64,000 nucleotides of DNA, taken from the IMG/VR virus record IMGVR_UViG_3300038345_000251, positions 32,001-96,000 of that record; one strand, 5' to 3'. The notes beneath the pieces are model-generated. The model was not told the origin of the DNA. It searched no databases and saw only the letters and a program-made list of their open reading frames with translations. Made by a program: the position numbers and the translations under genes. Shown here in pieces: positions 1 through 18,290 of this stretch (the stretch's first letter is position 1; each line of letters starts with the position of its first letter). The stretch comes from a virus. Lineage: Duplodnaviria > Heunggongvirae > Uroviricota > Caudoviricetes.

Positions 1-524
1 ATTTCTATTGCATCATTACCATAGAGTTTAAATATTTTAACTGCATATAATGTACTGATGTCGAATGATTTAAGGAACACCATAATATCGAACATGTGTT
101 TTTGTTCATTCCAAGATTGTACTAATTCATCAATTTTCTTTTGTCCCAATCGTGGAATTTCCTTTAATCTTTCAGGGTGATTTTCAATAATGTCAGGTGT
201 ATCTTCGCCAAACTTATCCACAATTTTATCAGCGAATCCTGGACCGATACCTTTAATCAAACCACTACCTAAATATTTACGGATTCCGTAAACAGTATCA
301 GGCATAATTTCATTGCAAAGAGTGGACACAAATTGTTTACCATACATATTATGAGTTTTCCAATCACCTTCTACATAGAGAGTTACCCCTGGTAGTGGAT
401 TAGTTGTATTAGCGATAAGAGTAACAGGTTTCTTAATGGTGTCAGGTGTGGCTAACATCACTGTATATCCATTCTCTTCGTTATAGTATATAATTGATTC
501 AACTGTACAATTAAAGTGTTCCAT
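1..524 (-). CDS. recD2: RecD2-like SF1B helicase, N-terminal part (runs off window start)
   Basis: Manual translation from ATG at 524: MEHFNCTVESIIYYNEENGYTV...VEGDWKTHNMYGKQF...YLGSGLIKGIGPGFADKIVDKFGEDT, the typical RecD2 N-terminal/HhH region. Confidence 0.85.
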   Translation of the reverse strand, partial: MEHFNCTVESIIYYNEENGYTVMLATPDTIKKPVTLIANTTNPLPGVTLYVEGDWKTHNMYGKQFVSTLCNEIMPDTVYGIRKYLGSGLIKGIGPGFADKIVDKFGEDTPDIIENHPERLKEIPRLGQKKIDELVQSWNEQKHMFDIMVFLKSFDISTLYAVKIFKLYGNDAIE

Positions 525-1146
525 TTACGTTTTTAATCATTGCTATTTTATTTTCTTGGAGTTTATAGATATTGATTAAGAGCAATAATGAATTTCCATC
601 TTTTTTATTTTCTTTGTCTTGATAATCTTTTATTTTTAAACCACTTCCTTTCACATTATATAATTGATTATTCACTCTAATATATTCTCTAAGTTTGAAC
701 ATATTAATGATGGCATATTTACAAACTTGATTATCTTTGTTTAAAAAGACATAAATTAGAAAGTCACATTCAGAACGTGCAAGACCACCTGGTTTATCGT
801 GTGATGTTATATCATAGACAATGTTACCTGTTTCGGTTATCCGTTTATCTGTTTTGATTTCTATTGCATAAAAATCCTCTGATTCAAGGTTCTTTAATGT
901 ATGGTAACTTAGTCTTTCCTTTATTTCGTTTTGTGTATTTAAATCCTTAATATTAATTTGTTCATCAGTTCTAAATATCAGTGCATCAATATCTTTATCC
1001 TTTTCAAGTTGTGTACCTTTTGTGTCTATATAAACTTTATGTGATAAAAAATGTATAGGGAAGATAGTGTTTAAGAAGAAATCTTCACCGATTTTCCCTA
1101 TATCTGATTGTTCTTTAACTTTATCACTCTTTCTCTTATATCCCAT
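511..1146 (-). CDS. PD-(D/E)XK-type nuclease-like protein
   Basis: GKIGE...DIDAL...IEIKTD motif spacing; likely start MGYKRK at 1146, downstream of a TATATTTG promoter. Confidence 0.55.
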   Translation of the reverse strand: MGYKRKSDKVKEQSDIGKIGEDFFLNTIFPIHFLSHKVYIDTKGTQLEKDKDIDALIFRTDEQINIKDLNTQNEIKERLSYHTLKNLESEDFYAIEIKTDKRITETGNIVYDITSHDKPGGLARSECDFLIYVFLNKDNQVCKYAIINMFKLREYIRVNNQLYNVKGSGLKIKDYQDKENKKDGNSLLLLINIYKLQENKIAMIKNVNGTL

Positions 1147-1259
1147 ATATCTGTTTTTTACAAATATACAAATTTTATATAAGAAAAACAACGAATATAT
1201 AAAACAAAAAAACGCACTTGTGAAAGTGCGTTTTTGATAATAATAAGGATAATATTGAA

Positions 1260-2372
1260 CTACTTAATCTTGCTTTCGATATATTTCTTAGTAAGGAAAT
1301 CGTCATAATCTGCCTTAATAAGTTTAGCAGGTTTAAGTTTACTCTTAAATGTATGATACAAAACCGAATACAAGTTAATCTTCTCTGCAAACTCAACAAA
1401 TTTAGTTTTGTCTGTTTCCATAATATTACACCATCTAAGATAAGGCATATCAGGGTTGTTGAAAATAGCATTAAGATTATTACTATAAATTGGAAGGTAA
1501 ATGTTTGCATCCAAGTTATGCTTCTTACAAACGTGTACACAAAGGTCTAAAGCATACATCAAAAGGTTTGCAACCTTAAGGTTTCGTACCCTATTATATC
1601 TACCAGGAAGATGATTCTTCCGATTCTCTTCAGCAATACCGCTTTCAACATAGATTGTACCAGCAGTGCTCAAAAAACTTCTATAAAAATCAGCATAATA
1701 GGTATAATATGGCTGAAGGGTAAAGTCTTCAGGGTCTGTATCACCCTTAATATACTTATGTGCAAACATATATCCGACAGCAGTATCAAGACTATTTGTC
1801 TCATACTGAAAATCCTTCATTTTGTAAAAAGCGTCAAGTGCTTCTCCGTCAGTCATACGAAGTTTAGCAGCAACTTTATCACCAGCACTCCAACTAGTTC
1901 TAGGAACACCACCGTTAAAACAATAAGTTAATTCCGCAATTCTATCATATGTCATTTCACCTTCATAGGTACACGTGAACTTTTCTGGAATTAAATAAGA
2001 TTTCTTTGAATCAGCCTTAAGGCGTTTAACACTTTCCTTGGCAGATTGTCCATCAATGATATAGAACTTGCCATCATCAGAACAAAGAGCAAATGAGAAC
2101 GGACGCAAATCATCATCCCATCCTTTCTTGACAATTGATTTCATCGTCTTCTTAACACGTGTCTCAAAGACTTTGTGTTCAAGTTCGTGATAAACATTCT
2201 TCTTATCATTATCAGAAGAAATACCACATCTTTGACCCCTTGAATGCAACAGCATATTAATTTCGTCAAAGTTAAGTTTAACAAATTGTTTTTGGTCTTT
2301 CGTTTTCTTAATTTCATCGAAAACAGTAGTAACAGTTGTGTTACTGGAATTAGTAAAGTTTTTGGTTTCCAT
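1260..2372 (-). CDS. ParB/Srx-like N-terminal domain protein
   Basis: IVKKGW...FYIIDGQS resembles the ParB-like DGQH motif. Confidence 0.5.
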   Translation of the reverse strand: METKNFTNSSNTTVTTVFDEIKKTKDQKQFVKLNFDEINMLLHSRGQRCGISSDNDKKNVYHELEHKVFETRVKKTMKSIVKKGWDDDLRPFSFALCSDDGKFYIIDGQSAKESVKRLKADSKKSYLIPEKFTCTYEGEMTYDRIAELTYCFNGGVPRTSWSAGDKVAAKLRMTDGEALDAFYKMKDFQYETNSLDTAVGYMFAHKYIKGDTDPEDFTLQPYYTYYADFYRSFLSTAGTIYVESGIAEENRKNHLPGRYNRVRNLKVANLLMYALDLCVHVCKKHNLDANIYLPIYSNNLNAIFNNPDMPYLRWCNIMETDKTKFVEFAEKINLYSVLYHTFKSKLKPAKLIKADYDDFLTKKYIESKIK

Positions 2373-2548
2373 AAATTTTAAATATTAATTAAGTTTTGTT
2401 AAATTTCAAATTTCACTACAAAGGTATAAACAATTTTTCTAATTTCCAAATTTATTTTACATTTTTTTCATTTAACTTTTCAGTTGGTGTATATGGCAAA
2501 TACCGTGCCAAAAAAATATGAGTAGATTTATTTAACCTACTCATATTC

Positions 2549-3439
2549 CTAATATATTTCAAGAATGTTAACGATTTTATCAGGTGGAATATTATCATAG
2601 GTATAATATGCAGTACCTTCTCTTTCATCATGATAAAGTTTTAATCCATCACAGTTAATTTCAAGTACAATCATATCCTGTAAGTTTTGTCCAACCATAT
2701 TTTTTATTTCATCTATATCAGTTCCGAGATATATTCTTTCTGGAAAATTACCTCTTGATTTAGGTATTAATCCATACTTTAATATTCTTTTTAAAAAAGA
2801 CTTATCTGTTGCATGATAAAATATTTCACCTGATTTTTGTTTATAACGTTTGCCATATTTTGCTTCAATGATTATACTGAAACTAATTATTGGTGTTTCA
2901 GAAAGATATTTATCAAATTCAATATCGTCTTTAAATAAAGAATCTTTAGATTGAAATGTATCGTTGAATTTATAGAATACTTTTGGTATATATCCATTTT
3001 TGTTTTCTTCTCTAATATCAATTTCTGAAACAAACCAACCTAATAATGTTTCTACTGTCTTGATGATTTCTCTGTAATTAGAAAAATCTTTTCCTAAATC
3101 AATTGCTACAAAATCGTTTTTCTTTGTTGTTGTGTTTCTTTTATATGGATTAAATCTTAAACTTCTGATTTTGATAATATTAGGAAATTTTTTCTTTAAA
3201 TATATTGCTGACTTATTTATATCATAAGACATTATAAGACCTTCATTAAGATTTTCAAATAAGAATTCTTGTTTAGTGTCAGTTCCATAAGATATTATGG
3301 AATCGTTATCTTCAGTTGTCAATAATAGTTCTTTAAAATATCTTTGTCTTTTGGTTGGTTCATAAAAAAATGGTTTAAGAACCTCTGTTATGAGGTTCTT
3401 AAAACCATTCTCATTAATTTTAATAATCTTTTCTTTCAT
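2549..3439 (-). CDS. Tpt1/KptA-like ADP-ribosyltransferase-fold protein with head-type leader
   Basis: C-terminal FYHAT...ILKYGLIP...IYLG...VLEI...NIPPDKI; N-terminal IIKINENGFKNLITE leader. Confidence 0.6.
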   Translation of the reverse strand: MKEKIIKINENGFKNLITEVLKPFFYEPTKRQRYFKELLLTTEDNDSIISYGTDTKQEFLFENLNEGLIMSYDINKSAIYLKKKFPNIIKIRSLRFNPYKRNTTTKKNDFVAIDLGKDFSNYREIIKTVETLLGWFVSEIDIREENKNGYIPKVFYKFNDTFQSKDSLFKDDIEFDKYLSETPIISFSIIIEAKYGKRYKQKSGEIFYHATDKSFLKRILKYGLIPKSRGNFPERIYLGTDIDEIKNMVGQNLQDMIVLEINCDGLKLYHDEREGTAYYTYDNIPPDKIVNILEIY

Positions 3440-3441
3440 TT

Positions 3442-5442
3442 TTATGGCTCTACTGTTTTTATTTTTCTTGGTCTTCCTCTTCCACGTTTAACTTCTACCA
3501 CAGGTTCATTCATCTTTGCCACTTCTTCGTTAGTATATACAAAAGGTAAATCATCAACTTGTGTACAACTTGTATTAAGTTCACCCTCTGTTGTAGATAC
3601 TGAAATACTACTATTTTCATCTACCTTAAGTGTATAATCAGCTTGTGCAGTTATTGTTTCATTTGGGTTAATCACTGTTTCAGCATGGTCAGTACTAATA
3701 GGTAAGTCACTAATATGTTGTTTAATGTCTTCTTGGATTTCTTTAGTTACACCAAGTTCTTCCCATTTCTTTTCTGCTTCCAACCTTCTTGCTTCTTCCA
3801 TTTCAGCCTTAGTTCTTCTCTTACGTTTAGGTTTAACTTCTTCCTTCTTAACAAAATCCTGTTCCCTTAATTCAACAAACTGAATAGGATGTCTCTTTTC
3901 AGGTTCTTCAACCTTTTTCTGTTTCTCTTCTCTTGCTTTCCTATTGGTTTCGACAATTACATCAGGTAGTCTTTTCATATTAGGAAAATAGTCAACAACA
4001 GTACTGATGATGCGTTCCTTAAGTTCATCTGAAGCGATTACATCATCAATAGATATTTTTTGAAGAATACAGTTAAAGTCATTAGTAATTACATCATAAA
4101 CGATTTCCTTTACACTATCTTTAAATGTAACAGATGTATTGTCAATACTTAGTTCAGTTGGTTTATCTATAGGTGCAGTAATACTTTGATTGTCATAGTC
4201 AATTACATTAATTTGAGTACATTCATTAGGTACTTGTGATGGTTGATGATTTTCAGGTACAAATATTGTATCACCTTCAATATCTTGATAATTTTCAGGT
4301 ACAGGTGTTGTGTCACCGTTAATATCTTGATACCCTTCAGGTACAAGTATCGTATCAGCAAGTTTTTCCATGTTAGGAAGTACATTTTCGATAACATCTT
4401 CTTGTTCAGTGATTTTTTTAACCCTATTTTCATTGGTTTTGGTAACGAAGTTAAATTGAAGGGTTTTAAGAGTACCATAAGTTTGTTCATCAAAATATTG
4501 GTTGAGTTTTTCGATAAGTTCATTCCAAAGTTTTGATTTCTTTTCAAATTCCTTATCTTCAGAAGTGCTATATTGTATTTCCACTTCATCACCGTCTTCT
4601 GTTTCTATGTTAGTTGTTTCAAGTTCGGTATTTACTTGTCCATCATATTTAGCAACACGTTCAAGAGATTTTTCATAGTATTCAGTATTCTTTTCAAAAC
4701 CTAAATAATTACGTTTATTAAGTTTTGCCATTTTAGCAGTTGTACCACTACCCATGAAAGGGTCAAGAACCAAGTTACCTTCTACTGACCAAGAGAGAAT
4801 ATGGTCTTGTGCAAGCAATTCAGGAAATACAGCAGGATGTCCTGTTTTATCATTAAATGATACACTATATCTCCATATATTATTTCTATAACTATATTCT
4901 TTTATAACAGGTTGATTTTTCTTAACTTCTACAAGGTTTCCATCAACATCATATGTGGTATTTTTACCCCATTTAGCCCAACCAGCCCATTTGTTACGTT
5001 TATCCGCAATAAGTGTAATATCTTTTCTGATTTCACCTTTAACAAAGACAAACATATATTCAAATATTTGAGAATAACGTTTGGCATTCTTACCAGCTGG
5101 TCTTGATGAACCGTTTTTCTCATAAATCATTGTATCGTGAAGTTTAAACCCAATTTCTTTGAAATATTGTGCTTGTCTGAATGATGTGCCTGTTTCATCA
5201 CCATTAATAGTTGCATCACCAACAACCCATACAACAACACACCCAGGTTTAGTTACTCTATATAATTCTCTTGCAATAGGTTTAAATATTTCAAAATCCC
5301 ATCTAAATTCATCACCTTCTTGATAGGTTCTAAGATTGTCATAAGGTGGACTTGTAACAGTCAAATCAACTGAATTATCAGGAAGTAATTTAAGACCATC
5401 TATACAATCCATGTTGTAAATTTTATTAATCTCTAATTCCAT
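3442..5442 (-). CDS. DNA N4/N6 methyltransferase (beta class) with long acidic extension and C-terminal AT-hook
   Basis: VTSPPY catalytic motif, HPAVFP, DPFMGSGTT SAM motif in the first ~265 aa; C-terminal KRGRGRPRK. Confidence 0.85.
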   Translation of the reverse strand: MELEINKIYNMDCIDGLKLLPDNSVDLTVTSPPYDNLRTYQEGDEFRWDFEIFKPIARELYRVTKPGCVVVWVVGDATINGDETGTSFRQAQYFKEIGFKLHDTMIYEKNGSSRPAGKNAKRYSQIFEYMFVFVKGEIRKDITLIADKRNKWAGWAKWGKNTTYDVDGNLVEVKKNQPVIKEYSYRNNIWRYSVSFNDKTGHPAVFPELLAQDHILSWSVEGNLVLDPFMGSGTTAKMAKLNKRNYLGFEKNTEYYEKSLERVAKYDGQVNTELETTNIETEDGDEVEIQYSTSEDKEFEKKSKLWNELIEKLNQYFDEQTYGTLKTLQFNFVTKTNENRVKKITEQEDVIENVLPNMEKLADTILVPEGYQDINGDTTPVPENYQDIEGDTIFVPENHQPSQVPNECTQINVIDYDNQSITAPIDKPTELSIDNTSVTFKDSVKEIVYDVITNDFNCILQKISIDDVIASDELKERIISTVVDYFPNMKRLPDVIVETNRKAREEKQKKVEEPEKRHPIQFVELREQDFVKKEEVKPKRKRRTKAEMEEARRLEAEKKWEELGVTKEIQEDIKQHISDLPISTDHAETVINPNETITAQADYTLKVDENSSISVSTTEGELNTSCTQVDDLPFVYTNEEVAKMNEPVVEVKRGRGRPRKIKTVEP
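4243..4345 (-). repeat. 42-bp coding tandem repeat (VPExYQDIxGDT) in methyltransferase extension
   Basis: VPEGYQDINGDTTP / VPENYQDIEGDTIF / VPENHQ. Confidence 0.7.
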
Positions 5443-5506: not shown

Positions 5507-5516
5507 CTATTTATAG
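5507..5516 (+). promoter_or_regulatory. Representative phage late-type promoter motif ACTATTTAT(A)
   Basis: Recurs shortly upstream of >20 structural/cargo genes and the ncRNAs on both strands. Confidence 0.7.
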
Positions 5517-5532
5517 AAAAATATTTTAGAAT

Positions 5533-8526
5533 ATGTACAAAGTTTATAATAAGAGAAGTAACGAAGTTATTAACGGTAAAGCCAAGTTACCAACACCTGA
5601 ACAATTAGAATATGGTGAACTTGCAATTAACTATGCAAAGGGTAAGGAAACATTGGCTATTAAAAATGATGAAGATGAAATCGTAAAGTTACCATTTACT
5701 GGCGGTAGTGGTGAAAGTGGTATTTTTGCTTACAGGGATGAAAATCATGAAGACGATGGAATATTCCCTGATAAACAGACATTATACGATTCTTTAAGAG
5801 ACCATATTAAAAGAGGTGAAAACCTTTTTGAACCAGAAGAAGGAAAGATGTGTGTTGCTTTTGTAAAGAATGATTGGGATGAAAGTATTTCTACATATCC
5901 TATTATAAATCCTGAACCTTCATACGATAGTATTGTTGACCCTGAAAAAACAAAAAGAACTAATGAGATTAAATCACATAGATTACCTTATAATGGTGAT
6001 AAGATAGTTGTTAGAAGACATTTATTCCATCAACCTATGGTACATCTTCCATATTATTTTCAAGATTGTCTTTGTGTGTTTAGGAAAAGTTTTGAAGAAC
6101 CTAGTCAAACTCGTACATTTAAATATAATTCAAGTTTGTTAGAATTTAAAGATGTTATAACAAATGGTTATAATGATTTAGTTGATGTAGAAGTATATGA
6201 TATTGATGAAAATGGCTGTGATAAAGAACTTGTTTTAACAAGAAATGATGGTGAATCTTATCGTTTTTGGGCTATGGTTCGTTTTGACATGTATGATAAA
6301 AATGTTTTTGAAGCAATAAATCGTATTTATGATGATAATGATGGATGTTATGTTTTAAACGAAAACACAATTAAACTTGAATGTATTTGTCACGATTTTT
6401 ATAGAAGTAGAACAACTCTTAGTCCATATTTGAAATTAGAATGGGGAAATTACACAAGCGGTGGTGGTGATGTAACACCTTATAATTTTGATGAGAATAA
6501 ACCTAAACTTATTAACATAAGACCAAGTTTATGGAAAGGTATTATTGAAAATCTTGATGAAAAAATATATCCTAATAGAGAACCTGAAAGATATAACATG
6601 TTTATTAAAAATGTTTTTGGTGACGGACAATCTAATTGGCCTAAACCAAGATATAGAGTAAGAAGTAAGATACGTAACTATATACCTGTCTATGGATATT
6701 TTGATAATAGACGAAAAATGGTATGTATTTATCCTGAACTTAGTGGTGATAAATTAATTATACATTATAATAAAGATGCTTTTCTTTATACAGGTGCTGA
6801 TTTATCAAACGAATATTTATATGTTAGTTTTACACGTAAGTTTTACGGAAATCGTTATATGAATATAGGTATTAGAATATATCTTGATACTTTAGATAGA
6901 AATAACTATTATACTATATTTGAAGCGTCTGATTTTTCTGAATTTGATGATGTTAACGGTGGCTTTTTGGGATATGATATAAATAATACTGAAACAAAAT
7001 GTTATACTGAATCAGATGTATATTCAAAATATTTTGGAACGTTAACACAATTTAAAGAAAGTAGAACCAATCGTTGGGAACATAAACTCAGTGGATGGCA
7101 TTGGTGTAATAGTAGGAAAGAATATCAAATCATTGATGGAACTGGAAGGTATCACGGTAATAAATCATATTCATTAATGCTTTATAAGAAACATAGAGGT
7201 GTTGTATCTATACATCCTTGTCATGTATCAATTATTAGAACAAACAAAAAAAACGTAGTTGATGATGCTGATTATTTGACATTTGATATTACAAATGGTG
7301 GTACAATCAATTGGAAACATAGTGGTAGTACCAATAGAGATTTATATTATAGAATTTCTTCTGATGGCGGTGAAAGTTATGGCGATTGGAATTTAATTAG
7401 TTCTGATGAAGATAGCAGTTTTAATGTTGATTCAAATGACAAAGTTCAATTTAAAGGAAATTTTCAAAATTATCCTACTCAAAATGATTCTAACTATTCA
7501 ACGTTTAGTGGTTCGACAGCAACGTTTAACGTTAGTGGTAACATAATGAGTATTATGAAAGAAGAAAATTTTGATAATTTGGAACTTACACAACCGTATG
7601 CCTTTTTCCAATTATTTGCTTGCACAAATGTTGCTGATGCTAGTGAAATGAAAATGCCTAATACAGTATCACAAGCATGTTGTGGTTTTATGTTTAGAGA
7701 GTGTAGGCTGTTAGAACATGGACCAAAATTACCAGCCGAAGAGTTAGTACAGGCATGTTATTGGGCAATGTTCATTAATTGTTCAAGATTACAAGAAGGT
7801 GTAGAAATGTCAGCAGTAAATATGGCATATCAAAGTTGTATTTATATGTATGCTTATTGTGGTTCATTGACAACTTTACCTGAATTACCTGCAACTAATT
7901 TAGGATATGGTTGTTATGCAAGAATGTTCCAAGCCTGTAATTCATTAACATCAATTCCAAGTGGTTATTTACCTTCAACAACTTTGGCTGAAGATTGTTA
8001 TACTGGAATGTTTTCTGACTGTTTTAATTTAACTTCAATACCAAGTGATTTATTACCAGCAACTACATTAAAACAGTCTTGTTATGTCTCTATGTTTGAA
8101 AACTGTTTTTCATTAACAAATGTTCCTAATTTACCTGCAACAGATTTATCAGGAGCAAATAGTTGTTATCAATGTATGTTCCAAAATTGTAGAAGTCTTA
8201 CAGGTATACCAACTGATTTGTTACCAGCAACAACATTGGCACAGAGTTGTTATAGTTCTATGTTCTATGGTTGTTCAAGTTTAGCCACAGCACCTGAATT
8301 ACCAGCTACTACTTTAGCAAATTATTGTTATCGTCAGATGTTTTATAATACTAATATTAATTACATTAAATGTTTAGCAACTGATATAAGTGCAAATCAA
8401 TGTACAAGCGATTGGGTTAATGGTGTTCAGACAACATCAGGTACATTTGTCAAGAATCCTGATATGAATGATTGGACAACAGGTACATCAGGTATTCCTG
8501 AGAATTGGAATGTACAGATAAATTAA
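5533..8526 (+). CDS. Fibre-anchored paralog A: GELAIN anchor + unknown basic domain + BspA-like LRR C-terminus
   Basis: N-terminus near-identical to 8869 and 10994; shared EPSYDSIVDP, PYYFQD, TLSPYLK, LYKKHRG motifs; C-terminal LPATTL..CY..MF..C repeats. Confidence 0.65.
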   Translation: MYKVYNKRSNEVINGKAKLPTPEQLEYGELAINYAKGKETLAIKNDEDEIVKLPFTGGSGESGIFAYRDENHEDDGIFPDKQTLYDSLRDHIKRGENLFEPEEGKMCVAFVKNDWDESISTYPIINPEPSYDSIVDPEKTKRTNEIKSHRLPYNGDKIVVRRHLFHQPMVHLPYYFQDCLCVFRKSFEEPSQTRTFKYNSSLLEFKDVITNGYNDLVDVEVYDIDENGCDKELVLTRNDGESYRFWAMVRFDMYDKNVFEAINRIYDDNDGCYVLNENTIKLECICHDFYRSRTTLSPYLKLEWGNYTSGGGDVTPYNFDENKPKLINIRPSLWKGIIENLDEKIYPNREPERYNMFIKNVFGDGQSNWPKPRYRVRSKIRNYIPVYGYFDNRRKMVCIYPELSGDKLIIHYNKDAFLYTGADLSNEYLYVSFTRKFYGNRYMNIGIRIYLDTLDRNNYYTIFEASDFSEFDDVNGGFLGYDINNTETKCYTESDVYSKYFGTLTQFKESRTNRWEHKLSGWHWCNSRKEYQIIDGTGRYHGNKSYSLMLYKKHRGVVSIHPCHVSIIRTNKKNVVDDADYLTFDITNGGTINWKHSGSTNRDLYYRISSDGGESYGDWNLISSDEDSSFNVDSNDKVQFKGNFQNYPTQNDSNYSTFSGSTATFNVSGNIMSIMKEENFDNLELTQPYAFFQLFACTNVADASEMKMPNTVSQACCGFMFRECRLLEHGPKLPAEELVQACYWAMFINCSRLQEGVEMSAVNMAYQSCIYMYAYCGSLTTLPELPATNLGYGCYARMFQACNSLTSIPSGYLPSTTLAEDCYTGMFSDCFNLTSIPSDLLPATTLKQSCYVSMFENCFSLTNVPNLPATDLSGANSCYQCMFQNCRSLTGIPTDLLPATTLAQSCYSSMFYGCSSLATAPELPATTLANYCYRQMFYNTNINYIKCLATDISANQCTSDWVNGVQTTSGTFVKNPDMNDWTTGTSGIPENWNVQIN

Positions 8527-8610
8527 AGTTAAGAATTAAATTTAATATAAAAAACTCACTTTTATTTTTTTCAAAAGTGAGTTTTTTTGTTTTTTTATAC
8601 TATTTATTAA

Positions 8611-8745
8611 GTGAAACAGGTCTCTTGTCCCGTGAGTGGACTTTAAAGCTAAGGTGTTTCCAAGTAATGTTCACTTAGGTGGGAGACGATGTTGAAAATA
8701 ATTTTCTCACAATATATAAAACGCATCCATTTGGGTGCGTTTATT
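8611..8745 (+). ncRNA. Hairpin ncRNA cassette 1 (79-nt irregular stem 8615-8693)
   Basis: Own ACTATTTAT promoter (8599); aac/gtt, gtctcttgtc/ggtgggagac and tgagtggac/gttcactta pairings; GAAAAT-N11-AATATATAA; terminator 8719-8742. Confidence 0.7.
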
Positions 8746-8755
8746 TTGTTTATGT

Positions 8756-8814
8756 AGCAGAGTACTGCAAGCCTGTCCCAAGAACCCCACAGTTTTAACT
8801 GTGGGAGTAGTCAG
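8756..8814 (+). mobile_element. Orphan copy of the IS605-type tnpB right end / omegaRNA 3' scaffold
   Basis: 58/59 nt identical to the reverse complement of 16933-16991, including the cccacagtt-tt-aactgtggg hairpin and terminal AGTAGTCAG. Confidence 0.85.
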
Positions 8815-8868
8815 ATGAATTTGTATATTAGAATTTTTCGAACTATTTATAGAAAAATATTTAAGAAT

Positions 8869-10602
8869 ATGCAAAGAGTTTATAATAAAAGAAGTGATGA
8901 AATTATAGATGGTAAAGCCAAATTACCAACACCTGAACAATTAGAATATGGTGAACTTGCAATCAACTACGCAAAGGGTAAAGAAACAATCAGTATTAAA
9001 AACAGTGATGATGAAATAGTAACTTTACCATTTGGTAATGTTTCTAAAGCAGGTTTAATTAAATTTGAACGTGCTTATCATGAAGAACCGTTATATATTT
9101 TTGATGATATTAACGATTTTTATGATTCAGTAAGAAACAAAATTGGTGATGGTGAACAATTATATGAACCAGAAGATGGTAAAATATGTGTTGCTGAATT
9201 AGCAGATGGTACTTACATTCCAATTATTAGTCCAGAGCCATCATATGATAGCATTGTTGACCCTAACAAGAAAAAGACAAATTATGAAATAATGAATCAT
9301 AAACATCGTCCTTATGATGGTAATAGAATTGTTGTTAGAAAACAATTATCAATACGTCCCGTTGAACATTTACCTTATTATTTTCAAGATGGAATTGTTA
9401 CAATAAGAATTAATAAGAACTATCTTAAAAAAGGTGAATCTATTGCAATTTATGTATATGATAGATGGTTTGAAGAGCCTAGATTTGTCAAAGATGGTTA
9501 TGGTTCTATATATGGAACTTCTCTCTCTAATGATATTCAATTAATTAATCATGGTGACGGATTATGGGAGTTAAAAAATAATGGTAATCGTGACCTGTAT
9601 AAACCAATTGTAATTCAAATACCATTTAAAATAGATACATCTGGAAGACAATACAATGTTCTTGAAGTAACTAATTCAAGTTTGTTTGTTGATGTTGATA
9701 CAAGGGATTTATTTTCAAGAACAATTGCTTATAATTTTGGACAGAACTGTGTTAAAGTAGGAAACATAAGATATGATAAATATTATAATCGTGAAACTTT
9801 AAGCCCATATCTTAAATTTGTTAGAACTGAAGGATGTAATATTAAACTTATTAATACAAAACCAAGTCTTTGGAAAGGTGTTGTTGACCATGATGGGGAA
9901 GTTATATATGAAAATACATCTAAATATGACAGTTTAATGGGCATGATATTAGATAAAGCACCAAATACATTTATTAAATCAAAGACAAGAGACTATATTT
10001 ATCGTTATCATAAAAAATTAGCACAACATAGAAAAGATGCTGGTTATGGACAAAGTGGTGTAGTAGGAAACATTGAAGGTGGTTATCTTTATTTAAGGTT
10101 TTCTATTATAACTGATGATGTGAGAAAATGTCGTTTTGTTATACATTTCGATAGTAAAATTGGTTTTTCAAAAAGAAGTGTTGATTTATCTTTTCAAGAG
10201 ATTGAAAACTTAATCGTTGAATCTTATAATCTTCCCGGTAATGGTAAAGTATTTAAACTTTTATTTGATGGTGACGATTTTTATGATTTAGGACAATTTT
10301 TCTATGGATGGGAAGTAAGTGGCATACACGTATATTGTCGTGATAGTTCTGTAACACATATGCCAATTTTAGGTGACAGAGATAAAAAAATGGATATGTC
10401 AAATAAAAAACTTAATCCTTTTGGTTGGTTTAAAGGTGGGTATTCAGGTGTTAGTAAATCAGGAAGAAATACTTATGAGAAAATAAGAAGAAACAAAGGA
10501 AGGTATCAACGTAGTTATGCTATTAAACTTTATAAAGTTCATAGAGGTATTCCTTCTTCATACCCAACAACAGTAATTATTAGAAAAAATAAAAGAAAAT
10601 AA
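8869..10602 (+). CDS. Fibre-anchored paralog B (GELAIN anchor + unknown basic domain)
   Basis: Start MQRVYNKRS at 8869 after ACTATTTATA promoter; paralogous to 5533 and 10994; very basic C-terminus. Confidence 0.65.
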   Translation: MQRVYNKRSDEIIDGKAKLPTPEQLEYGELAINYAKGKETISIKNSDDEIVTLPFGNVSKAGLIKFERAYHEEPLYIFDDINDFYDSVRNKIGDGEQLYEPEDGKICVAELADGTYIPIISPEPSYDSIVDPNKKKTNYEIMNHKHRPYDGNRIVVRKQLSIRPVEHLPYYFQDGIVTIRINKNYLKKGESIAIYVYDRWFEEPRFVKDGYGSIYGTSLSNDIQLINHGDGLWELKNNGNRDLYKPIVIQIPFKIDTSGRQYNVLEVTNSSLFVDVDTRDLFSRTIAYNFGQNCVKVGNIRYDKYYNRETLSPYLKFVRTEGCNIKLINTKPSLWKGVVDHDGEVIYENTSKYDSLMGMILDKAPNTFIKSKTRDYIYRYHKKLAQHRKDAGYGQSGVVGNIEGGYLYLRFSIITDDVRKCRFVIHFDSKIGFSKRSVDLSFQEIENLIVESYNLPGNGKVFKLLFDGDDFYDLGQFFYGWEVSGIHVYCRDSSVTHMPILGDRDKKMDMSNKKLNPFGWFKGGYSGVSKSGRNTYEKIRRNKGRYQRSYAIKLYKVHRGIPSSYPTTVIIRKNKRK

Positions 10603-10632
10603 AATTTTTTGTTTTTTTATACTATTTATTAA

Positions 10633-10775
10633 GTGAATCTCCCATTCCTCAGGGGCGCATTCTTTTGGCAGAGTGGTTCATCTGTTTTGAATGTACATGT
10701 GGTGGTGGGGCAGATGAAAATCCTTAAAAAACAATATATAAAAAACTTTGTAATTTTTTTACAAAGTTTTTATTT
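10633..10775 (+). ncRNA. Hairpin ncRNA cassette 2 (79-nt stem 10637-10715)
   Basis: Promoter ACTATTTAT at 10621; atct/agat, cccatt/ggtggg, gcattc/gaatgt and ggcaga/tctgtt pairings; GAAAAT-N11-AATATATAA; terminator aaaaactttgtaa...ttacaaagttttt. Confidence 0.7.
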
Positions 10776-10802
10776 TTTTTATATTTTCATACTATTTATT
10801 TA

Positions 10803-10939
10803 ATGAAACGAATCCATCGAATTAAAGGTTTCTTTATCGTGGGACTGGGTTCTACCTCGTTGAGGCCTCTAGATGGAGTACGTTGAAAATTCTTAAAACT
10901 CTATATATAAGCAGATAAATTATTTATCTGCTTTTTTTT
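10803..10939 (+). ncRNA. Hairpin ncRNA cassette 3 (78-nt stem 10807-10884)
   Basis: Promoter ACTATTTAT at 10791; aacg/cgtt, tccatc/gatgga, aggtttc/gaggcct and gtgggac/gttctac pairings; GAAAAT-N11-TATATATAA; terminator aagcagataaat/atttatctgctt. Confidence 0.7.
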
Positions 10940-10993
10940 GTTATATAATTGATGTTAACGATATATTTATTTATATAAATAAACAAAAAAATT

Positions 10994-12688
10994 ATGCAAA
11001 GAGTATATAATAAGAGAAGTAACGAAATTATTAACGGTAAAGCCAAGTTACCAACAGCTGAACAGTTAGAGTATGGTGAAATTGCAATTAACTATGCAAA
11101 AGGTGAAGAAACATTAGCTATTAAAAATGATGAAGATGAAATTGTAAAATTGCCATTTACTGGCGGTAGTGGTGATAGTAATATCAGATATGTTAGAAAT
11201 AGTGACGTAAACCCATTTTCAGATAAAAGTCAACTATATGATTATATAAGAAGAAAAAGAAAAAGTGGTGATAATCTATATGAACCAGAAAATGGATGCC
11301 TTTTTGTTGCAAGAGTTGTTGAAAATGGAGTAGAAAGTATATATCCATTTGTAAATTATGAACCATCATATGACAGTATTATTGACCCAACAAAAACTAA
11401 AACACAAAAGCAAACTGAAGAACATAAAAAAATAACATATGATGGAAAATTTGTTGTTAGAAAACATTTTCCCGAAAGACCTATGGAATTTTTACGTTAC
11501 TATTTCCAAGGTGAATTTATGTTGTTTGAAGTGTATATAGTGGCAGGTGGTAGTGCAACATATTATTATGATACTGTTTTAATTAATGATATAGATATAC
11601 TTTCAAGTGAAGAAGGTATAAGAACATTTTATAAAAGACATCATAATAATATTGTTGTTGATAGAAATACTGATGGCGTAAGAGTTTTCAGTAATACAGG
11701 AACAACTGACGCAAAAATATTGATTAAAGTATTTCCTAATTGTTCAAATGGAAGTTTAGATATTGCTAATGTTGTTTTCCTTACAGATTTAAATAGTTAT
11801 TTAGGTAAAAAACAAAATTGGAAAGACGAATGGCAAAAAATAAAAGATAAAGAGTTCTATATTAACAATGATACATTTTATTTTGCTAATTTAAGTCAAC
11901 TCACAAGTGAACCTGAAACAATTTCACCACACCTTAAAATTAGAAATCAACATGTTGTAAACATTAAACCATCTACATTTTTAATTCAAAACAGAAACAT
12001 TGTTGATGGTGCAACAATTATGGGCGCAAAAGCAGATAGTAGTGTGTTTAAACGTTTAATTAATACAATTACAGCAAAAGATGCTAATAAACATATTTTA
12101 GTTAAAACAAGAGATTACGTTCCATTATATCCACAACGTGGTGAAAAATATGGTAAAATGGTTGTTACTGCAAAATTTGAATGTGGTAAGTTAATCATTT
12201 GTAAAGGGTATTATCAAGGAAAAATTGTTGTCGTATATCATGAAAGTGTTACACCAAACATCACACAAAGTTTAACTATTGATACAGCACAACATTCAAG
12301 TAGTGACCCAACTGTTCTTGTTATTGAACCTAGTGATTTAGGTATAGTAAGTACATATTTTTATTCATTAACATGTATTGGAACAATGTTGCTTGATAGT
12401 AGTGTTGAAGGATATATGGGTACATATACAAAACGTCCAGAATTCCATACAAGTGGAAGCGCAAAATTCAAGAAAAAAATTCTTACTCCTTGGGGATGGA
12501 TTAAACCTGCAACAAAAAAGAAAATGTACTGGGGTACACTTGCATGTGTTTATTATAACCAACATTCAAGACATGTTTCTAAAAAATATGGTAGAAGTTA
12601 TGATATGTTGGCATATAAAGTGATAAGAGGTGTTAAATCATTATTCCCTGCACATATTTATTGTAATTTACGAAGTAGAAGTAAATAA
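10994..12688 (+). CDS. Fibre-anchored paralog C (GEIAIN anchor + unknown basic domain)
   Basis: Same N-terminus and EPSYDSIIDP, RYYFQG, TISPHLK, PWGW, YKVIRG motifs as paralogs A and B. Confidence 0.65.
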   Translation: MQRVYNKRSNEIINGKAKLPTAEQLEYGEIAINYAKGEETLAIKNDEDEIVKLPFTGGSGDSNIRYVRNSDVNPFSDKSQLYDYIRRKRKSGDNLYEPENGCLFVARVVENGVESIYPFVNYEPSYDSIIDPTKTKTQKQTEEHKKITYDGKFVVRKHFPERPMEFLRYYFQGEFMLFEVYIVAGGSATYYYDTVLINDIDILSSEEGIRTFYKRHHNNIVVDRNTDGVRVFSNTGTTDAKILIKVFPNCSNGSLDIANVVFLTDLNSYLGKKQNWKDEWQKIKDKEFYINNDTFYFANLSQLTSEPETISPHLKIRNQHVVNIKPSTFLIQNRNIVDGATIMGAKADSSVFKRLINTITAKDANKHILVKTRDYVPLYPQRGEKYGKMVVTAKFECGKLIICKGYYQGKIVVVYHESVTPNITQSLTIDTAQHSSSDPTVLVIEPSDLGIVSTYFYSLTCIGTMLLDSSVEGYMGTYTKRPEFHTSGSAKFKKKILTPWGWIKPATKKKMYWGTLACVYYNQHSRHVSKKYGRSYDMLAYKVIRGVKSLFPAHIYCNLRSRSK

Positions 12689-13387: not shown

Positions 13388-16129
13388 ATGAATTTATTTG
13401 AAAATATTATATTAGATTTATTGTTAGAAGCAAAATCACCAGAGGAAATCTTAAGTATATTAAAATATAAATTTAAAAATGTCCCTGAAAATGTGATTGA
13501 TGCAGTATTTAATGTTGACCCAACCAAAAAGAAGTCATATACACAATGGGTGTTGATGCATTGGGACGAAGAAAAACATATTATAGATAAGTTTTTACAA
13601 GATGGAACATTTAAAAAAATGTTTAACTATGCTAAAGAACATCAAGAAGTACAGTTAAATAAGTATGATTCCATTAAAGAAGCAGCAAACCAACTTTTAG
13701 GTGCTATTAGTGATAGTGCCTCAGAGGATGATATTGATATTGATTTACTTAAAAAAGACGGTAACGGACCAGAAAATGATTTTACAATTGCATTCCGTAG
13801 TGGTGAATGGATAGTAGCAATACCTAATACCTATGAAGCAGACCATAAACTTGGTGAAAATACACATTGGTGTACTGCTGGTTGGTATTATACCGATGAA
13901 CAAGGTAGAATGTATTATAGAAGATACTTAAGAGAATTTGGTGGGTGTTATTTTATTAATTTTGATTTAAGACAATATGAAACACTTCATAATAGAAATA
14001 GAGAAATAGAACAAACAACTGTTCGTTATCCATTTACACGTTATCAATTCCATTTTGAATCAAAACAGTTTATGGACACTGATGATAACCGTATAAGTAT
14101 GTCACAACTTAATATGCCTGATGATGTAATTAAATTCTATGAAGACAAAGGTTATAATTTCGATGATGTTGATGAGTTATCAGATGAGGAAAGAATGGAA
14201 CAATACGAAGAAGCACGTTGGAATCGTAGTGTTGATGTAACTGATAGACTTGTTATATTACCTGAATATGACCAAGATATGAATCCTAATATTCCTGATG
14301 ATACTATATATATGGTTTATGACCAAAATAATGATATAATGGACCCTGTTAGTTATACACCTATAAGTACACAAGCGTTATATGTTGATGATGATAATGG
14401 TTTCTATATCTTCAATGCAAATACTAAAGGACATGGAATGAACGGTACTTTACTTGTTACTGATGCACCAGCTGATGTAGATGAATATGATGGTACAGGC
14501 GATGATGAACCATTAGTTATTATTGAAACTGGTGGTTATTTTGAAGCATATGAGGAAGTTAAATACTATAAAGTAGTTGAGTTTTTTGGTGTTAATACAT
14601 TACTTTTTATTAGTGAAGATAATGGAAGATTCAATGGTAACGATTCATTTATCCATTTTCAAAATAGAAATTTAACAGATAGTATTAAATTACCGTTTAA
14701 AATTGATGAAGTTGGTGTTTTAGATGTTTTCCCTAACTATGACGTTGGTAGTTTATATGATACTGAACGTTCAGAGTTTATATTTGAAGTTGTTTATGAT
14801 AATGGTTATCATTCATTGATTAATGTTGCACGTGATGGCATAAGTTATTTAATTAAATGTGATAAACCTGCCAATAATGGTGAACATTTCATCGAACAAG
14901 AAGATGAAAATGGTGAAATGGTAATATTAGGTACACTCAGAAACTATTATGGTAATCAAGAAGATTATGATGAAAAAAATACTACAGCTATTGCTGCATA
15001 TGTAAAAGATTTTCATTTTAATAATACTGTATTAGTTAAAATGAATGATAATAAATATAATATTTTTAACATTAAAACAAAACAACTTATTTTACCTCAA
15101 AATTTTAACGTAATTAAATCTGCTGATGCTAATCTTGTATTAGCAGAAAAATATGGTGCTGTTATTGTAAGTAATGATGATGAAAATGGTGATACCGTTT
15201 ATTCATTAACAACAGGTGAACCTTTAACAGATACATATCCATTGATTGATTGTGGCGTAAGATTTTTCTATGGATGGGTTGGTGCACAAGATGCAATGAA
15301 AAACTATTATGTTTTTTCACCTGATTTTAAACAAACTTATGGACCATTTGTTGGTTTAAATAGTGGATGGGGTGCAAGTAAAATGCTTGTTACTGTTTTA
15401 GACAAAAACCATCAGAAAGTTAGAAAATTCTTTAACTTTAAAACAGGAAAATTCGAATTTGAAGATATTGGTATGCTATCAGTTCTTTCAGGTGATTATA
15501 ACATTGCTGCTGGTATGACAAGTAATGGTGAATCAATAATGTTTAATTTTGAAACAGGTAATATTATAGATAGAAACGTTATGCCAGGACAACGTTTTCA
15601 AACAATTAATAAAGATGGGTCAATTATTGGTATAAGACATTCTAATACAGGAAAAATGAATATGATTAACTTAAAAACAGGTGAAAAATTATTACCGTTT
15701 GAAGTTGATAAAATTTATGGAAGATTTGATAGCCGTAGTTATCAAGCATTTTTCCCATTTGTTTCTTTAAAAAACAATGATGCTTTCTATATATTCAATG
15801 TTGATACTAAACAACTTTTACCAAATGAAAATGGTATTGTAACAGGTGATACAGGTGTTTATGCATTTAGTTTATATGGTTCAGAAATGCCTGTTTGTAG
15901 TTTTTCAATACATGATAGTATGAATACTTCTGTGTATCATATTGTTTGGAACTATAGTAATGGAGAAGTAAGTGTAAGAGAAGGTGGAAGGGGCGGTGAA
16001 TCAGTTGATTTAAAGAATTGCACACCTGAAGTACAACAAAGAGTTATGCAAGTACTTAATCCACAAAAAGCACAATTTGTTAGTCAATATACAGAAATGA
16101 TAAATAGAATGAAAAAGTTAATTAAATAA
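13388..16129 (+). CDS. PcfJ-like domain plus beta-repeat (WG-repeat-like) protein, putative virion cargo
   Basis: WIVAIPNTYEADHKLGENTHWCTA and YQFHFES..FMD..D motifs; C-terminal YNIFNIKTKQLIL-type repeats. Confidence 0.5.
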   Translation: MNLFENIILDLLLEAKSPEEILSILKYKFKNVPENVIDAVFNVDPTKKKSYTQWVLMHWDEEKHIIDKFLQDGTFKKMFNYAKEHQEVQLNKYDSIKEAANQLLGAISDSASEDDIDIDLLKKDGNGPENDFTIAFRSGEWIVAIPNTYEADHKLGENTHWCTAGWYYTDEQGRMYYRRYLREFGGCYFINFDLRQYETLHNRNREIEQTTVRYPFTRYQFHFESKQFMDTDDNRISMSQLNMPDDVIKFYEDKGYNFDDVDELSDEERMEQYEEARWNRSVDVTDRLVILPEYDQDMNPNIPDDTIYMVYDQNNDIMDPVSYTPISTQALYVDDDNGFYIFNANTKGHGMNGTLLVTDAPADVDEYDGTGDDEPLVIIETGGYFEAYEEVKYYKVVEFFGVNTLLFISEDNGRFNGNDSFIHFQNRNLTDSIKLPFKIDEVGVLDVFPNYDVGSLYDTERSEFIFEVVYDNGYHSLINVARDGISYLIKCDKPANNGEHFIEQEDENGEMVILGTLRNYYGNQEDYDEKNTTAIAAYVKDFHFNNTVLVKMNDNKYNIFNIKTKQLILPQNFNVIKSADANLVLAEKYGAVIVSNDDENGDTVYSLTTGEPLTDTYPLIDCGVRFFYGWVGAQDAMKNYYVFSPDFKQTYGPFVGLNSGWGASKMLVTVLDKNHQKVRKFFNFKTGKFEFEDIGMLSVLSGDYNIAAGMTSNGESIMFNFETGNIIDRNVMPGQRFQTINKDGSIIGIRHSNTGKMNMINLKTGEKLLPFEVDKIYGRFDSRSYQAFFPFVSLKNNDAFYIFNVDTKQLLPNENGIVTGDTGVYAFSLYGSEMPVCSFSIHDSMNTSVYHIVWNYSNGEVSVREGGRGGESVDLKNCTPEVQQRVMQVLNPQKAQFVSQYTEMINRMKKLIK

Positions 16130-16774: not shown

Positions 16775-16932
16775 AAAAAAGTGGGGATGTATTTCATCCT
16801 ACATCCCCTAATGACAGTCACTGGTAGCGAAATTCCCAAAACTACACGGCTGTGCATATACCAAAAAAGGAAAATCAGGTATATCATCTGAAATTCCTTT
16901 TATATTTTTTATGTACTATATTCCCAAATCCA
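16775..16932 (-). ncRNA. 3' part of a multi-branched structured ncRNA interrupted by the IS605-type element (5' part at ~18209-18240)
   Basis: GC-richer non-coding region with stems gtacata/tatgcac, aaaaggaa/ttcctttt and gtagt/gctac; strong terminator ggggatgta/tacatcccc-T6; pairs across the IS with the 5' piece. Confidence 0.5.
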
Positions 16933-18102
16933 CTGACTACTCCCACAGTTAAAACTGTGGGGTTCTTGGGACAGGCTTGCAGTAATCTGCTCCTTATGTC
17001 CACAAAGGGATAGTCCTTCCCTCTCTATATTTCTTGCAGCATTCAAATCCCTGTTATGATGTGTTCCGCACATAGGACAAGCCCATTCCCTAACATTCAG
17101 GTTTTTGACCTTTTCTTCCTTGTGTCCACACTCCGAACAGATTTGGCTACTTGCAAACCACTTGTCTATCTTGACAAGGCTGTCACACTTGTATTCAAGC
17201 ATATTCAGGAACATACTCCACCCACAGTCGGAGATTGATTGTGCGAGGTGATGGTTCTTTTGCATACCTTTCACATTCAAAGTCTCAACACATACTGTGG
17301 AATAGTTCTTTGCTATCCAAGTGCTTGTTTTGTGCAAGTAATCATATCTTTGGAAGGCTATATGCTCTTGTAGTTTTGCAACCTGCTTTATTGCCTTCTT
17401 CCAATTGTTTGACTGCTCTTCTTTTTTCTTACCCTGTTGGTATCTCCTACTGACAGTCCTTTGCAATACTCTCAGTTTCCTGAGATTTGATTTCAAGTAT
17501 TTTTGGTTTTCAAATACCTTTCCATCACTAAGTACTGCAAAATCCTTTATGCCAATGTCAATACCAACAGACTTTCCATTATCCAATTTTGCCTTATCCA
17601 CAGTTTCATACAGCACTGATATGAAATACCTGTCTGTTGATGTATGGCTGATTGTATATGACTTTATTTTTCCTTTTATTTGCTTGTTGTGACCCTTGAA
17701 AATCCTGATAGTTCCCAACTTTGCAACCTTTACAGTCCAATTGTCATAGTCAAGGACACAGGCAATTGGAATCCTGAAACTATCTTTTACACCTTTCTTC
17801 TTGAATTTAGGGAAACCGCTACCACCCTTGCGAAAGAAATTGGCATAGGCACTATCAAGGTTCCTGATAGCCTGCTGCAAGGATTGGCTTGGAGCATCCT
17901 TCAGGAAAGTGAGTTCAGACTTCAGTTGTGGGAGTTGGTTTATCAGTTCTATTGCTGAGATTGTTATACCACTTTCCTTATATGCACTAATTTTTCTGTC
18001 AAGCATAGTGTTATACACTTTGCGGCAGCACCCACAAGTCTGCTTAATCTGCTCCTTCTGAGTGTTGGTAGGATTTAGTTCATATTTGATGGCTCTCAGC
18101 AT
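16909..18102 (-). CDS. tnpB: RNA-guided endonuclease TnpB (IS200/IS605)
   Basis: HTH N-terminus, RuvC GIDIG / VETL / [18 protein letters not shown] zinc ribbon; ORF reads through the right end into the flank. Confidence 0.95.
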
Positions 18103-18208
18103 TAGTTAAACTTTTGCTTTTCTAATGTAAATATACAAAAATTTTTTCAAAAAAACAAAATTAAAGTACACTTGCTTTCAACCAACTATTGAAATAGTGG
18201 TTTTTTTT
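16933..18208 (-). mobile_element. IS200/IS605-family (IS1341-like, tnpB-only) element
   Basis: Left-end hairpin aaccactatttcaatagttggtt (~18180-18203); right-end hairpin cccacagtt/aactgtggg plus AGTAGTCA; GC higher than phage background; left boundary approximate. Confidence 0.8.
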
Positions 18209-18290
18209 CCCCACAGGAAAATCCAATAAAATTTGTTTGATTATAAATAGTATGAAAAGTTGAATTATTCGGTTTCTTTATTTTCTTTTA

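Follow-up and report, generated by a model that had tools for sequence, protein, structure and literature searches.

Several phages are known to encode small structured RNAs. The pRNA of phi29, which is associated with the particle and bound by phage protein, is branched and serves the packaging motor, and T4 produces the stable RNAs C and D. In T7, long irregular intergenic hairpins act as RNase III sites. Kink-turn, box C/D and SECIS-type RNA ends have established motif definitions, and attC sites are characterized by the pairing boxes RYYYAAC and GTTRRRY and by an integrase. The roughly 90-nt vsgRNAs are described as phage-encoded, stand-alone decoy RNAs (10.64898/2026.06.01.729453).

Organization of the locus

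The locus described here combines three candidate structured RNAs (R1–R3) with three related genes (A, B, and C) in a gut jumbo phage (Caudoviricetes), having a genome of 392,823 bases (393 kb) and 29.6% GC. The window, i.e., the whole stretch of DNA that was analysed, comprises 64,000 nt (positions 32,001 to 96,000 of IMG/VR record IMGVR_UViG_3300038345_000251). Genes and RNA cassettes are arranged in the order A-R1-B-R2-R3-C, all on the + strand, ~30 kb or more away from the capsid, terminase, and portal genes, and the block also carries, on the minus strand, four genes unrelated to these, one of them encoding a DNA methylase.

Gene A (5533..8526; 997 aa) has CTATTTAT at 5507 and is followed by an intrinsic terminator predicted from sequence (8552..8597, +), the T run of which leads into the R1 promoter. 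Cassette R1 (8599..8750) contains ACTATTTAT (8599-8607), GTGA (8611-8614), the rod (8615-8693), GAAAAT (8694-8699), 11 nt, AATATATAA (8711-8719), and a predicted terminator (~8720-8750). Between R1 and gene B lies a TnpB-like insertion of 61 bp (8754..8814, +), resembling the 3' end of an IS605-family TnpB gene at 16909-18102, which was assigned by Pfam and shares with the insertion the same peptide end of 16 residues. This insertion is no part of the RNA/protein system, and run X5 lacks it (joint 8753-8815).

Gene B (8869..10602; 577 aa), with CTATTTAT at 8843, encodes an anchor and a core with a basic C-terminal segment (net +17). Cassette R2 (10621..10775) has the promoter motif at 10621-10629, GTGA at 10633-10636, and the rod at 10637-10715, followed by GAAAAT, 11 nt, AATATATAA at 10733-10741, and a predicted terminator (~10742-10775). 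Cassette R3 (10791..10940) has the motif at 10791-10799, ATGA at 10803-10806, and the rod at 10807-10884, followed by GAAAAT, 11 nt, TATATATAA at 10902-10910, and a predicted terminator (~10911-10940). Gene C (10994..12688; 564 aa) is again composed of anchor and core with a basic C-terminal segment (net +15); a TATTTAT variant lies upstream (10964-10975), and a terminator-like hairpin past its stop. The preliminary description had matched three genes with three RNAs. The counts hold, but one RNA per gene does not, since the order A-R1-B-R2-R3-C contains no repeated gene+RNA unit.

Anatomy and predicted transcription of the cassettes

The rods correspond to the three GC-rich islands noticed previously (79, 79, and 78 nt; GC 0.44-0.49), and the architecture proposed for them, i.e., ACTATTTAT, RTGA, rod, GAAAAT-N11-WATATATAA, and hairpin with T run, is present in all three. 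GAAAAT-N11-WATATATAA occurs three times in the 392,823 bases, always at R1–R3, and a covariance model of R1–R3 has three matches in the genome, which are R1–R3 themselves. Upstream flanks are 80-94% identical and downstream flanks 69-85%, and the inner 70 nt are unrelated. That the stems have almost no common sequence was borne out: their inner identity (19-22 of 70-71 positions; 27-31%) is at chance level, and only the length is fixed.

The promoter motif is common to the cassettes and the genes, and also precedes portal and baseplate genes; CTATTTAT is found upstream of 53 of the 385 ORFs (36-fold enrichment), including the portal and gp25 genes. TTGAAA-N17-TATAA, considered as a sigma-70 promoter, was rejected, being upstream of 0/385 ORFs. 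A coding function was also rejected; an ATG frame of 27 codons is present in R3, but in R1 this frame ends after 11 codons. The cassettes resemble genuine structured RNAs that are transcribed separately. Two RNA runs yielded, among the pieces listed, nothing but short gene B contigs (X19, 10084-10234 and 10276-10426; X20, 10299-10463) and no piece over the hairpins; assembled contigs of this kind would lose a 135-nt RNA.

The hairpins might act in cis on the fibre mRNAs, as 3' stabilisers, processing sites, or attenuating leaders tuning the amounts of A, B, and C. Sequence inspection found no terminator hairpin between the gene B stop and R2, and thus B mRNA could extend through R2; WATATATAA also precedes other terminator-like hairpins (10 of 85 genome occurrences, R1–R3 included); and long irregular intergenic hairpins of phages are known RNase III sites. 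However, R1 is separated from A by the A terminator, the R1 terminator and the B promoter lie between R1 and B, and R3, having both promoter and terminator, touches no coding sequence. The antisense fit of the tail to the A, B, and C starts is not notable (ranks 5-263 of 386), so antisense control of these genes is not supported. Altogether, a cis-acting role seems quite improbable.

Predicted folding and structural comparison

All three RNAs are predicted to fold end to end into unbranched rods of -23.6 to -23.9 kcal/mol, as the preliminary description had proposed. Rods at least as stable were formed by 3, 7, and 2 of 1000 dinucleotide shuffles of R1, R2, and R3, respectively, and the minus strands fold 8-10 kcal/mol worse than the + strands. 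Judged by energy only, R2 does not stand out (z -0.64; 193/1000 shuffles as stable), and pair probabilities in its lower stem are 0.3-0.4.

Compensatory change along the entire stem, also proposed earlier, found no support in the three sequences. Positions of helices and loops differ among R1, R2, and R3 and RNAalifold found no structure common to the three, so compensatory change is visible only in the basal 4 bp, the only alignable part, where covariation is not significant (83/500 shuffles, n=3). The base common to R1–R3 has 5' GA and 3' GA around the 4-bp stem, then AAAU, and tandem sheared G-A pairs are predicted there. Natural substitutions in R2 (n=5) include three that keep a pair, one that gains a pair, one that leaves a mismatch, and none that breaks a pair. 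This evidence is weak, because ~60% of transitions placed at random on paired positions would likewise keep the pair, a single run accounts for four of the five changes, and X13 and X16 may represent the same strain.

Comparison with known RNA systems

In agreement with the earlier failure to assign a family, Rfam 15 has no match in the window at the gathering threshold, the best hit (E 0.51) being far below it. No tRNA or tmRNA was detected in the window (ARAGORN, RF00005), and a 13-nt match of R2 to the D-arm of a tRNA of this phage has E 0.46. The phi29 pRNA and T4 RNAs C and D resemble R1–R3 in being small structured phage RNAs. The pRNA is branched, however, whereas R1–R3 are divergent, unbranched rods located among appendage-type genes and without Rfam match. 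With vsgRNAs, R1–R3 share compactness, similar size, a long stem, and a 3' hairpin (10.64898/2026.06.01.729453). They differ from vsgRNA and tracrRNA in lacking a 5' guide, the rod beginning at the predicted 5' end, and in lacking a repeat:anti-repeat sequence conserved among the three; no tracrRNA or CRISPR family of Rfam matched at gathering score.

All three RNAs are reminiscent of kink-turn, box C/D, and SECIS-type ends in having 5' RUGA and 3' UGA around a stem, where two sheared G-A pairs could form. The canonical second helix and 3-nt bulge of a kink-turn are not evident in R1–R3. In comparison with box C/D RNAs, the stem is long (~79 nt), with only RUGA and UGA, and RUGAUGA/CUGA boxes and a guide are absent. 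The likeness to box C/D guides, together with conserved flanks around an unrelated inner 70 nt, reminiscent of repeat and spacer, might suggest programmable guides, in which the constant flanks would be a protein handle and the variable rod would direct a core enzyme to its target. Against this, the variable part is mostly self-paired and not exposed; targets of R1 and R2 in the own genome are unconvincing (13-17 nt with E 0.1 or worse among the matches listed), phage records gave no convincing target, and no internal C'/D' boxes are seen by eye. No Nop, L7Ae, IS110, or reverse-transcriptase domain was found in A, B, C or the Pfam-scanned ORFs of the phage, and for reverse transcriptase the search covered 394 ORF entries and 8 more (ORFs of 75 aa or more) at E 1e-5. 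A guide function is thus regarded as very doubtful.

Hairpins acting at the DNA level, i.e., attC-like or other recombination sites shuffling fibre genes, would be in keeping with the gene-sized units between them and with the AAC start and GTT end of R1 and R3, which are like attC cores. R2, however, has ATC/GAT, the bases outside the triplet are unpaired, each cassette has promoter and terminator, and no integrase family is present among the ORFs scanned. Moreover, runs X2 and X5 keep the order B-R2-R3 on one contig, and X8, X13, X16, and X18 keep R2-R3-C start. This possibility can be given hardly any weight.

Proteins A, B, and C

As first described, there are exactly three paralogues (tblastn). 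They belong to a rare family with a common fibre anchor and a ~500-aa core that ends in a basic segment; sequence comparison of this core with Pfam, PHROG, and PDB gave no match. The residues found to be invariant in the core are R, K, Y, F, D, T, P, and G. In gene A, the anchor (residues ~1-55) and the core (~75-574) are followed by a C-terminal cysteine-rich repeat domain (575-997), common to at least four other proteins of the phage.

The K/R/H/Y/W-rich domain noted in the preliminary description has a basic C-terminal segment, in which the 100 residues around the HRG motif have a net charge of +8 to +22 in 10/10 family members, reaching down to 21-26% identity. As a control, 61 other anchor-bearing proteins do not exceed +9 in any 100-aa window (median 0). 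Of the 99 long proteins of the phage, B and C are within the top 7, and the tail of A is the weakest (+8), its best window (+9) equalling the control maximum. Such a segment could equally bind DNA, LPS, or acidic polysaccharide.

Anchor residues 16-53 have a weak match to a PHROG tail fibre (E 0.038) and no Pfam match at E 0.1, the Mtd_N profile PF18454 included. In the ESM Atlas the top lead for P0158, a lead only, is an Mtd_N cluster (score 0.78). The anchor is present in most of the best 150 of 1284 matches and in several other proteins of the phage, and it suggests a virion location for A, B, and C. Mtd_N-like and tail-fibre proteins may share the N-terminal anchor with A, B, and C, but the basic segment at the end of the core is lacking in the other anchored proteins. 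AlphaFold2 with 15 sequences reached pLDDT 42 and pTM 0.26, and Foldseek matches of the model had TM <=0.14; hence no fold is claimed.

Possible duplication, relatives, and homologues

The 5' flanks of A and B are identical at 34 of 40 nt and those of R1 and R2 at 33 of 35 nt, as would be expected if, in two of the three cases, gene and RNA had been duplicated as one unit. The proposal that RNA and gene were duplicated together is therefore consistent with A/R1 and B/R2 but not with gene C, the 5' flank of which differs from those of A and B (12-13 of 40 nt) and which has R3 upstream.

Both the family domain and the cassette pattern are absent in 37/37 related phage records, and the covariance model matched 0/35 other records. 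Any cargo of a single accessory block would be expected to show such joint absence; in G001, with a capsid protein 86% identical, the genes flanking the A–C block are directly adjacent. Beyond these relatives, the strict cassette pattern gave two matches in viral contigs, both in AT-rich coding regions of giant-virus type. A relaxed pattern gave at least 119 loci (34/64 parts), the 30 best-folding of which lack the tail except for R1–R3. The RNA model did not match Lak-A1, and a blastn match to Lak phages was rejected as AT-rich flank. Homologous gene loci were not confirmed in viral, metagenome, genome, or GenBank phage collections, seven candidate loci matching the anchor only; a degenerate protein motif had 7, 0, and 5 matches, none of them fitting the family HMM. 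Distant protein homologues (P0002, P0003, P0006/P0009, and P0007/P0010) sit on ENA and Logan contigs, the longest contig measuring 172 kb. Six supplementary files of the phage structured RNA catalogue PMC10690425 contain no match.

The main rival to a partnership of RNA and protein is that R1–R3 are abundant, stand-alone intracellular decoys or mimics, sequestering an RNA-binding enzyme or a defence sensor of the host, with the basic tails binding another polyanion, e.g., at the host surface, and the RNAs lying near fibre genes by accident. Every cassette comes with a promoter motif and a terminator of its own, the genes follow no regular order, other accessory genes lie in the block, the vsgRNAs are phage decoys of like size, and relatives L268 and L291 have different promoter-hairpin-terminator units without the A/B/C protein family. 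On the other hand, a late-type promoter would suit assembly more than early counter-defence, the RNAs have no Rfam likeness to a known ligand RNA, and the decoy function leaves the shared A/B and R1/R2 flanks and the family-wide basic tail unexplained. It is possible, though on the unlikely side.

Possible function of the RNAs

The favored interpretation, a tentative one with somewhat less than an even chance, is that R1–R3 are late-transcribed small RNAs of ~135 nt, likely bound by A, B, and C, which would place a protein-RNA complex on the virion. A phage late promoter would start transcription at about RUGA, giving transcripts with predicted rods of equal length. The protein core would recognize the conserved G-A base and the shape and length of the rod rather than its sequence, the basic tail would acquire its fold on contact with the RNA backbone, and the complex would be held on the virion by the anchor, as in other fibres. 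One-to-one cognate pairing would not be needed. On the virion, RNA could be a stiff scaffold, a part of the surface, or cargo into the next host. A more specific form, that the anchored proteins clamp the rods at the G-A base and show or deliver them as ribonucleoprotein appendages, with exchangeable rods diversifying binding, is doubtful.

No precedent was found in the literature searched for an RNA-bearing phage fibre, or for RNA as a lasting part of an appendage of a tailed DNA phage or as particle-borne, protein-bound cargo. If the reading of these sequences is right, RNA would join the materials used by phages for host recognition or first contact, and the proteins would be a natural example of binding RNA rods by shape. 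Even without the protein partnership, R1–R3 would be a new class of small phage RNAs, fixed in geometry but free in sequence, and even without the RNA partnership, A, B, and C would be a new family of basic-tailed virion proteins, their place in the virion being predicted from the anchor. Both the RNA class and the protein family are accessible in vitro without phage culture.

Cassette anatomy and predicted folding

The three cassettes R1, R2 and R3 (+ strand, 8599-8750, 10621-10775 and 10791-10940) agree with the sequence in all coordinates and motifs previously assigned to them. The pattern GAAAAT-N11-WATATATAA occurs three times genome-wide, always at R1-R3. Among 98 CTATTTAT sites, the next 80 nt reach a GC content of at least 0.44 only at R1-R3 and at one intragenic site. 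That such units act in cis, as mRNA elements, is improbable. WATATATAA may be a partly generic terminator flank, since a hairpin at least as stable as -9 kcal/mol follows it at 10 of 85 occurrences, R1-R3 included, as against 32 of 400 random 50-mers. An IS605-type end fragment is inserted at 8754-8814, directly after the R1 terminator, and resembles the 3' terminus of a TnpB gene located at another site in the window; the fragment is polymorphic among sequencing runs and absent in run X5.

End-to-end folding with G-U pairs, as proposed in the preliminary description, was recovered: each hairpin (79, 79 and 78 nt) is predicted to form an unbranched rod of -23.6 to -23.9 kcal/mol with 4-5 G-U pairs. 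The rod shape arose in 51 (R1), 38 (R2) and 26 (R3) of 1000 shuffles, and rods of at least equal stability in 3, 7 and 2, respectively. Energy-only z-scores (R1 -2.2, R2 -0.6, R3 -1.9) caution against over-reading stability. The minus strand folds 8-10 kcal/mol less well, which together with the G-U pairs points to the + strand as the RNA; a role as DNA recombination sites is highly improbable.

Conservation and natural variation of the hairpins

The cassette flanks are near-identical (28-33/35 nt upstream, 18-22/26 downstream), and the inner 70 nt of R1-R3 show identity at chance level. A reading as programmable guides, with the variable rod setting target specificity, is very doubtful. Features common to the three are length and a base consisting of GA, a 4-bp stem, GA and AAAU, the stem being AACA/UGUU in R1, AUCU/AGAU in R2 and AACG/CGUU in R3. 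Kink-turns contain tandem sheared G-A pairs, and the GA/GA flanking the basal stem is predicted to be able to form such pairs, but the remainder of the kink-turn motif is missing.

Compensatory change along the stems, claimed at first, is unsupported because the inner helices vary in number and position and no consensus fold of R1-R3 emerged. Change on both sides was seen at 2 of 4 basal pairs, exceeding slid controls but not shuffles (83/500, in an alignment gapped for R2 at the fourth pair).

Natural variation in R2 and R3 was read from single contigs of four runs from four studies. R3 was invariant. R2 carried five substitutions, four in run X8 and one common to X13 and X16, of which three retain a pair via G-U exchange, one creates a pair at a mismatched position, one stays mismatched and none breaks a pair. 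This pattern lends mild support to the predicted rod, since ~60% of random transitions would also retain pairing.

Phage setting

The phage record (392,823 bases, GC 29.6%), of which the window is bases 32001-96000, has T4-like genes for capsid, portal, terminase and gp25, along with two sigma-70-type factors, numerous tRNAs and enzymes of RNA repair. The window stretch is present in gut metagenome runs from several studies, the best match being a bovine gut run, which may be its source. TATATTTG is enriched 14-fold upstream of ORFs, and because it agrees with the Bacteroidota promoter motif, the host is probably a member of Bacteroidota. CTATTTAT precedes 53 of 385 ORFs, portal and gp25 among them, a position that suggests a late-type phage promoter. 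Two IS605-family TnpB genes stand in tandem at 16909-19524, with two further TnpB genes elsewhere in the genome.

RT, Nop, L7Ae, TROVE, RNase III and integrase families were not found among the scanned ORFs (E 1e-5), and membership of the cassettes in retrons, DGRs, TIGR-like systems or integrons was ruled out on this absence of partner proteins.

The A/B/C protein family

The genes A, B and C (+ strand, 5533..8526, 8869..10602 and 10994..12688) are exactly three paralogues, as tblastn bore out, with ~32-33% identity across the common region. Pfam gave no match for any of them, PHROG matches were confined to the anchor and the C-terminal repeats of A, and the best PDB sequence match had an E value of 0.12. 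When 1.84 billion representatives were searched with a profile, 1284 matches were returned at E 0.001, the majority of the best 150 being anchor-only. Relatives comprise six distant full-length proteins (P0002, P0003, P0006, P0007, P0009 and P0010; 21-26% identity to B) and one A-like protein. Their shared motifs YDxIR, YxSLxDP, RKHLP..YxF, ETxSPxLK and KHRG..P flank two variable inserts. For P0006/P0009-type and P0007/P0010 proteins, longest contigs of equal size suggest occurrence in pairs on the same contigs.

The net charge of the 100 residues around HRG is +8 to +22 in 10/10 family members, A being the weakest; 61 other anchored proteins (at least 350 aa) have at most +9 in every 100-aa window. 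Structure prediction gave a pLDDT of 42 and no usable fold.

Possible linkage of RNAs and proteins

Cassettes and genes carry a common promoter motif, which counts for linkage. Joint duplication of RNA and gene was earlier suggested from the 3:3 count and co-divergence. A single duplication of gene plus RNA would make A/B and R1/R2 flanks alike, and they are (34/40 and 33/35 upstream bases, respectively), which also counts for linkage. The irregular order A-R1-B-R2-R3-C, the different 5' flank of C and the unrelated genes in the same block speak against linkage. In related jumbo-phage records, the A/B/C domain and the cassette pattern were each found in 0/37, the RNA model matched none of 35 other records, and anchor-only matches occurred in 17 of 35 others. 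This joint absence is weak evidence for linkage. In the related record G001, a homologue of the 191-aa gene adjoins a RecD-like helicase gene; here ~12 kb including the whole module intervenes. RNAs working apart from the proteins could be stand-alone decoys, which is rather unlikely.

The same accessory block contains four genes at 511-5442 (- strand). One encodes a DNA methylase bearing a long acidic tail, another a protein that weakly matches an RNA 2'-phosphotransferase PHROG (E 0.0016).

Other RNA-like elements

Several tRNA genes of the phage (L219:5020-5195, L219:5305-5482, L218:17666-17816, L218:19655-19769, L219:1880-1989 and, on the - strand, L219 about 8085-8130) carry inserts of ~40-100 nt that seem to lie in or close to the anticodon loop, and were missed by ARAGORN and caught by Rfam; the inserts may be small tRNA introns. 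The phage also has a CUA-anticodon tRNA, yet TAG terminates just 10 of 198 long ORFs. An unassigned GC-rich non-coding island between tRNA genes (250684-250783 of the phage record; L218 about 15684-15783) matches the 3' base of R1 at 15/16 positions (E 1.8, compatible with chance).

Related jumbo phages contain other units of TATTTAT promoter, GC-rich hairpin and terminator, of different shape and without Rfam match (L291 about 12000-12150, - strand, from G022; L268 about 8085-8175, + strand, from G008). In a 35-kb viral contig, L130:301-397 comprises TATTTAT, ATGAAAC, a long AT-rich hairpin of 87 nt and GTTGAAAA; it is also readable as a short hydrophobic ORF and did not match the RNA model.

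Relation to published systems and proposed function

The literature, covered mostly as titles and abstract openings, yielded neither cassettes like these nor phage fibres that bear RNA. The vsgRNAs (10.64898/2026.06.01.729453), in the portion of that source consulted, differ in architecture from R1-R3. The consulted portion of PMC13282480 mentions non-coding RNAs of phiKZ and jumbo phages with head-fibre appendages, and no RNA-protein fibre. The cassettes had no match in six of nine supplementary files of PMC10690425. Further comparators were pRNA, T4 RNAs C and D, SECIS elements, attC sites and T7 RNase III sites.

Protein-bound RNA on the virion, as first envisaged, is retained tentatively as the likeliest of the readings. 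The RNAs would be made late and fold to rods of fixed length, A, B or C would grip the conserved rod base and the backbone with its basic core, and its anchor would tie the complex to the particle. The data show no more of this than the anatomy, the folding statistics and the charge pattern; transcription, binding and location are inferences. R1-R3 are a genuine trio of predicted small RNAs, specific to this locus and of a new kind, A/B/C are a new basic-tailed, fibre-anchored protein family adjoining them, and a putative partnership between the two is plausible and partly supported.
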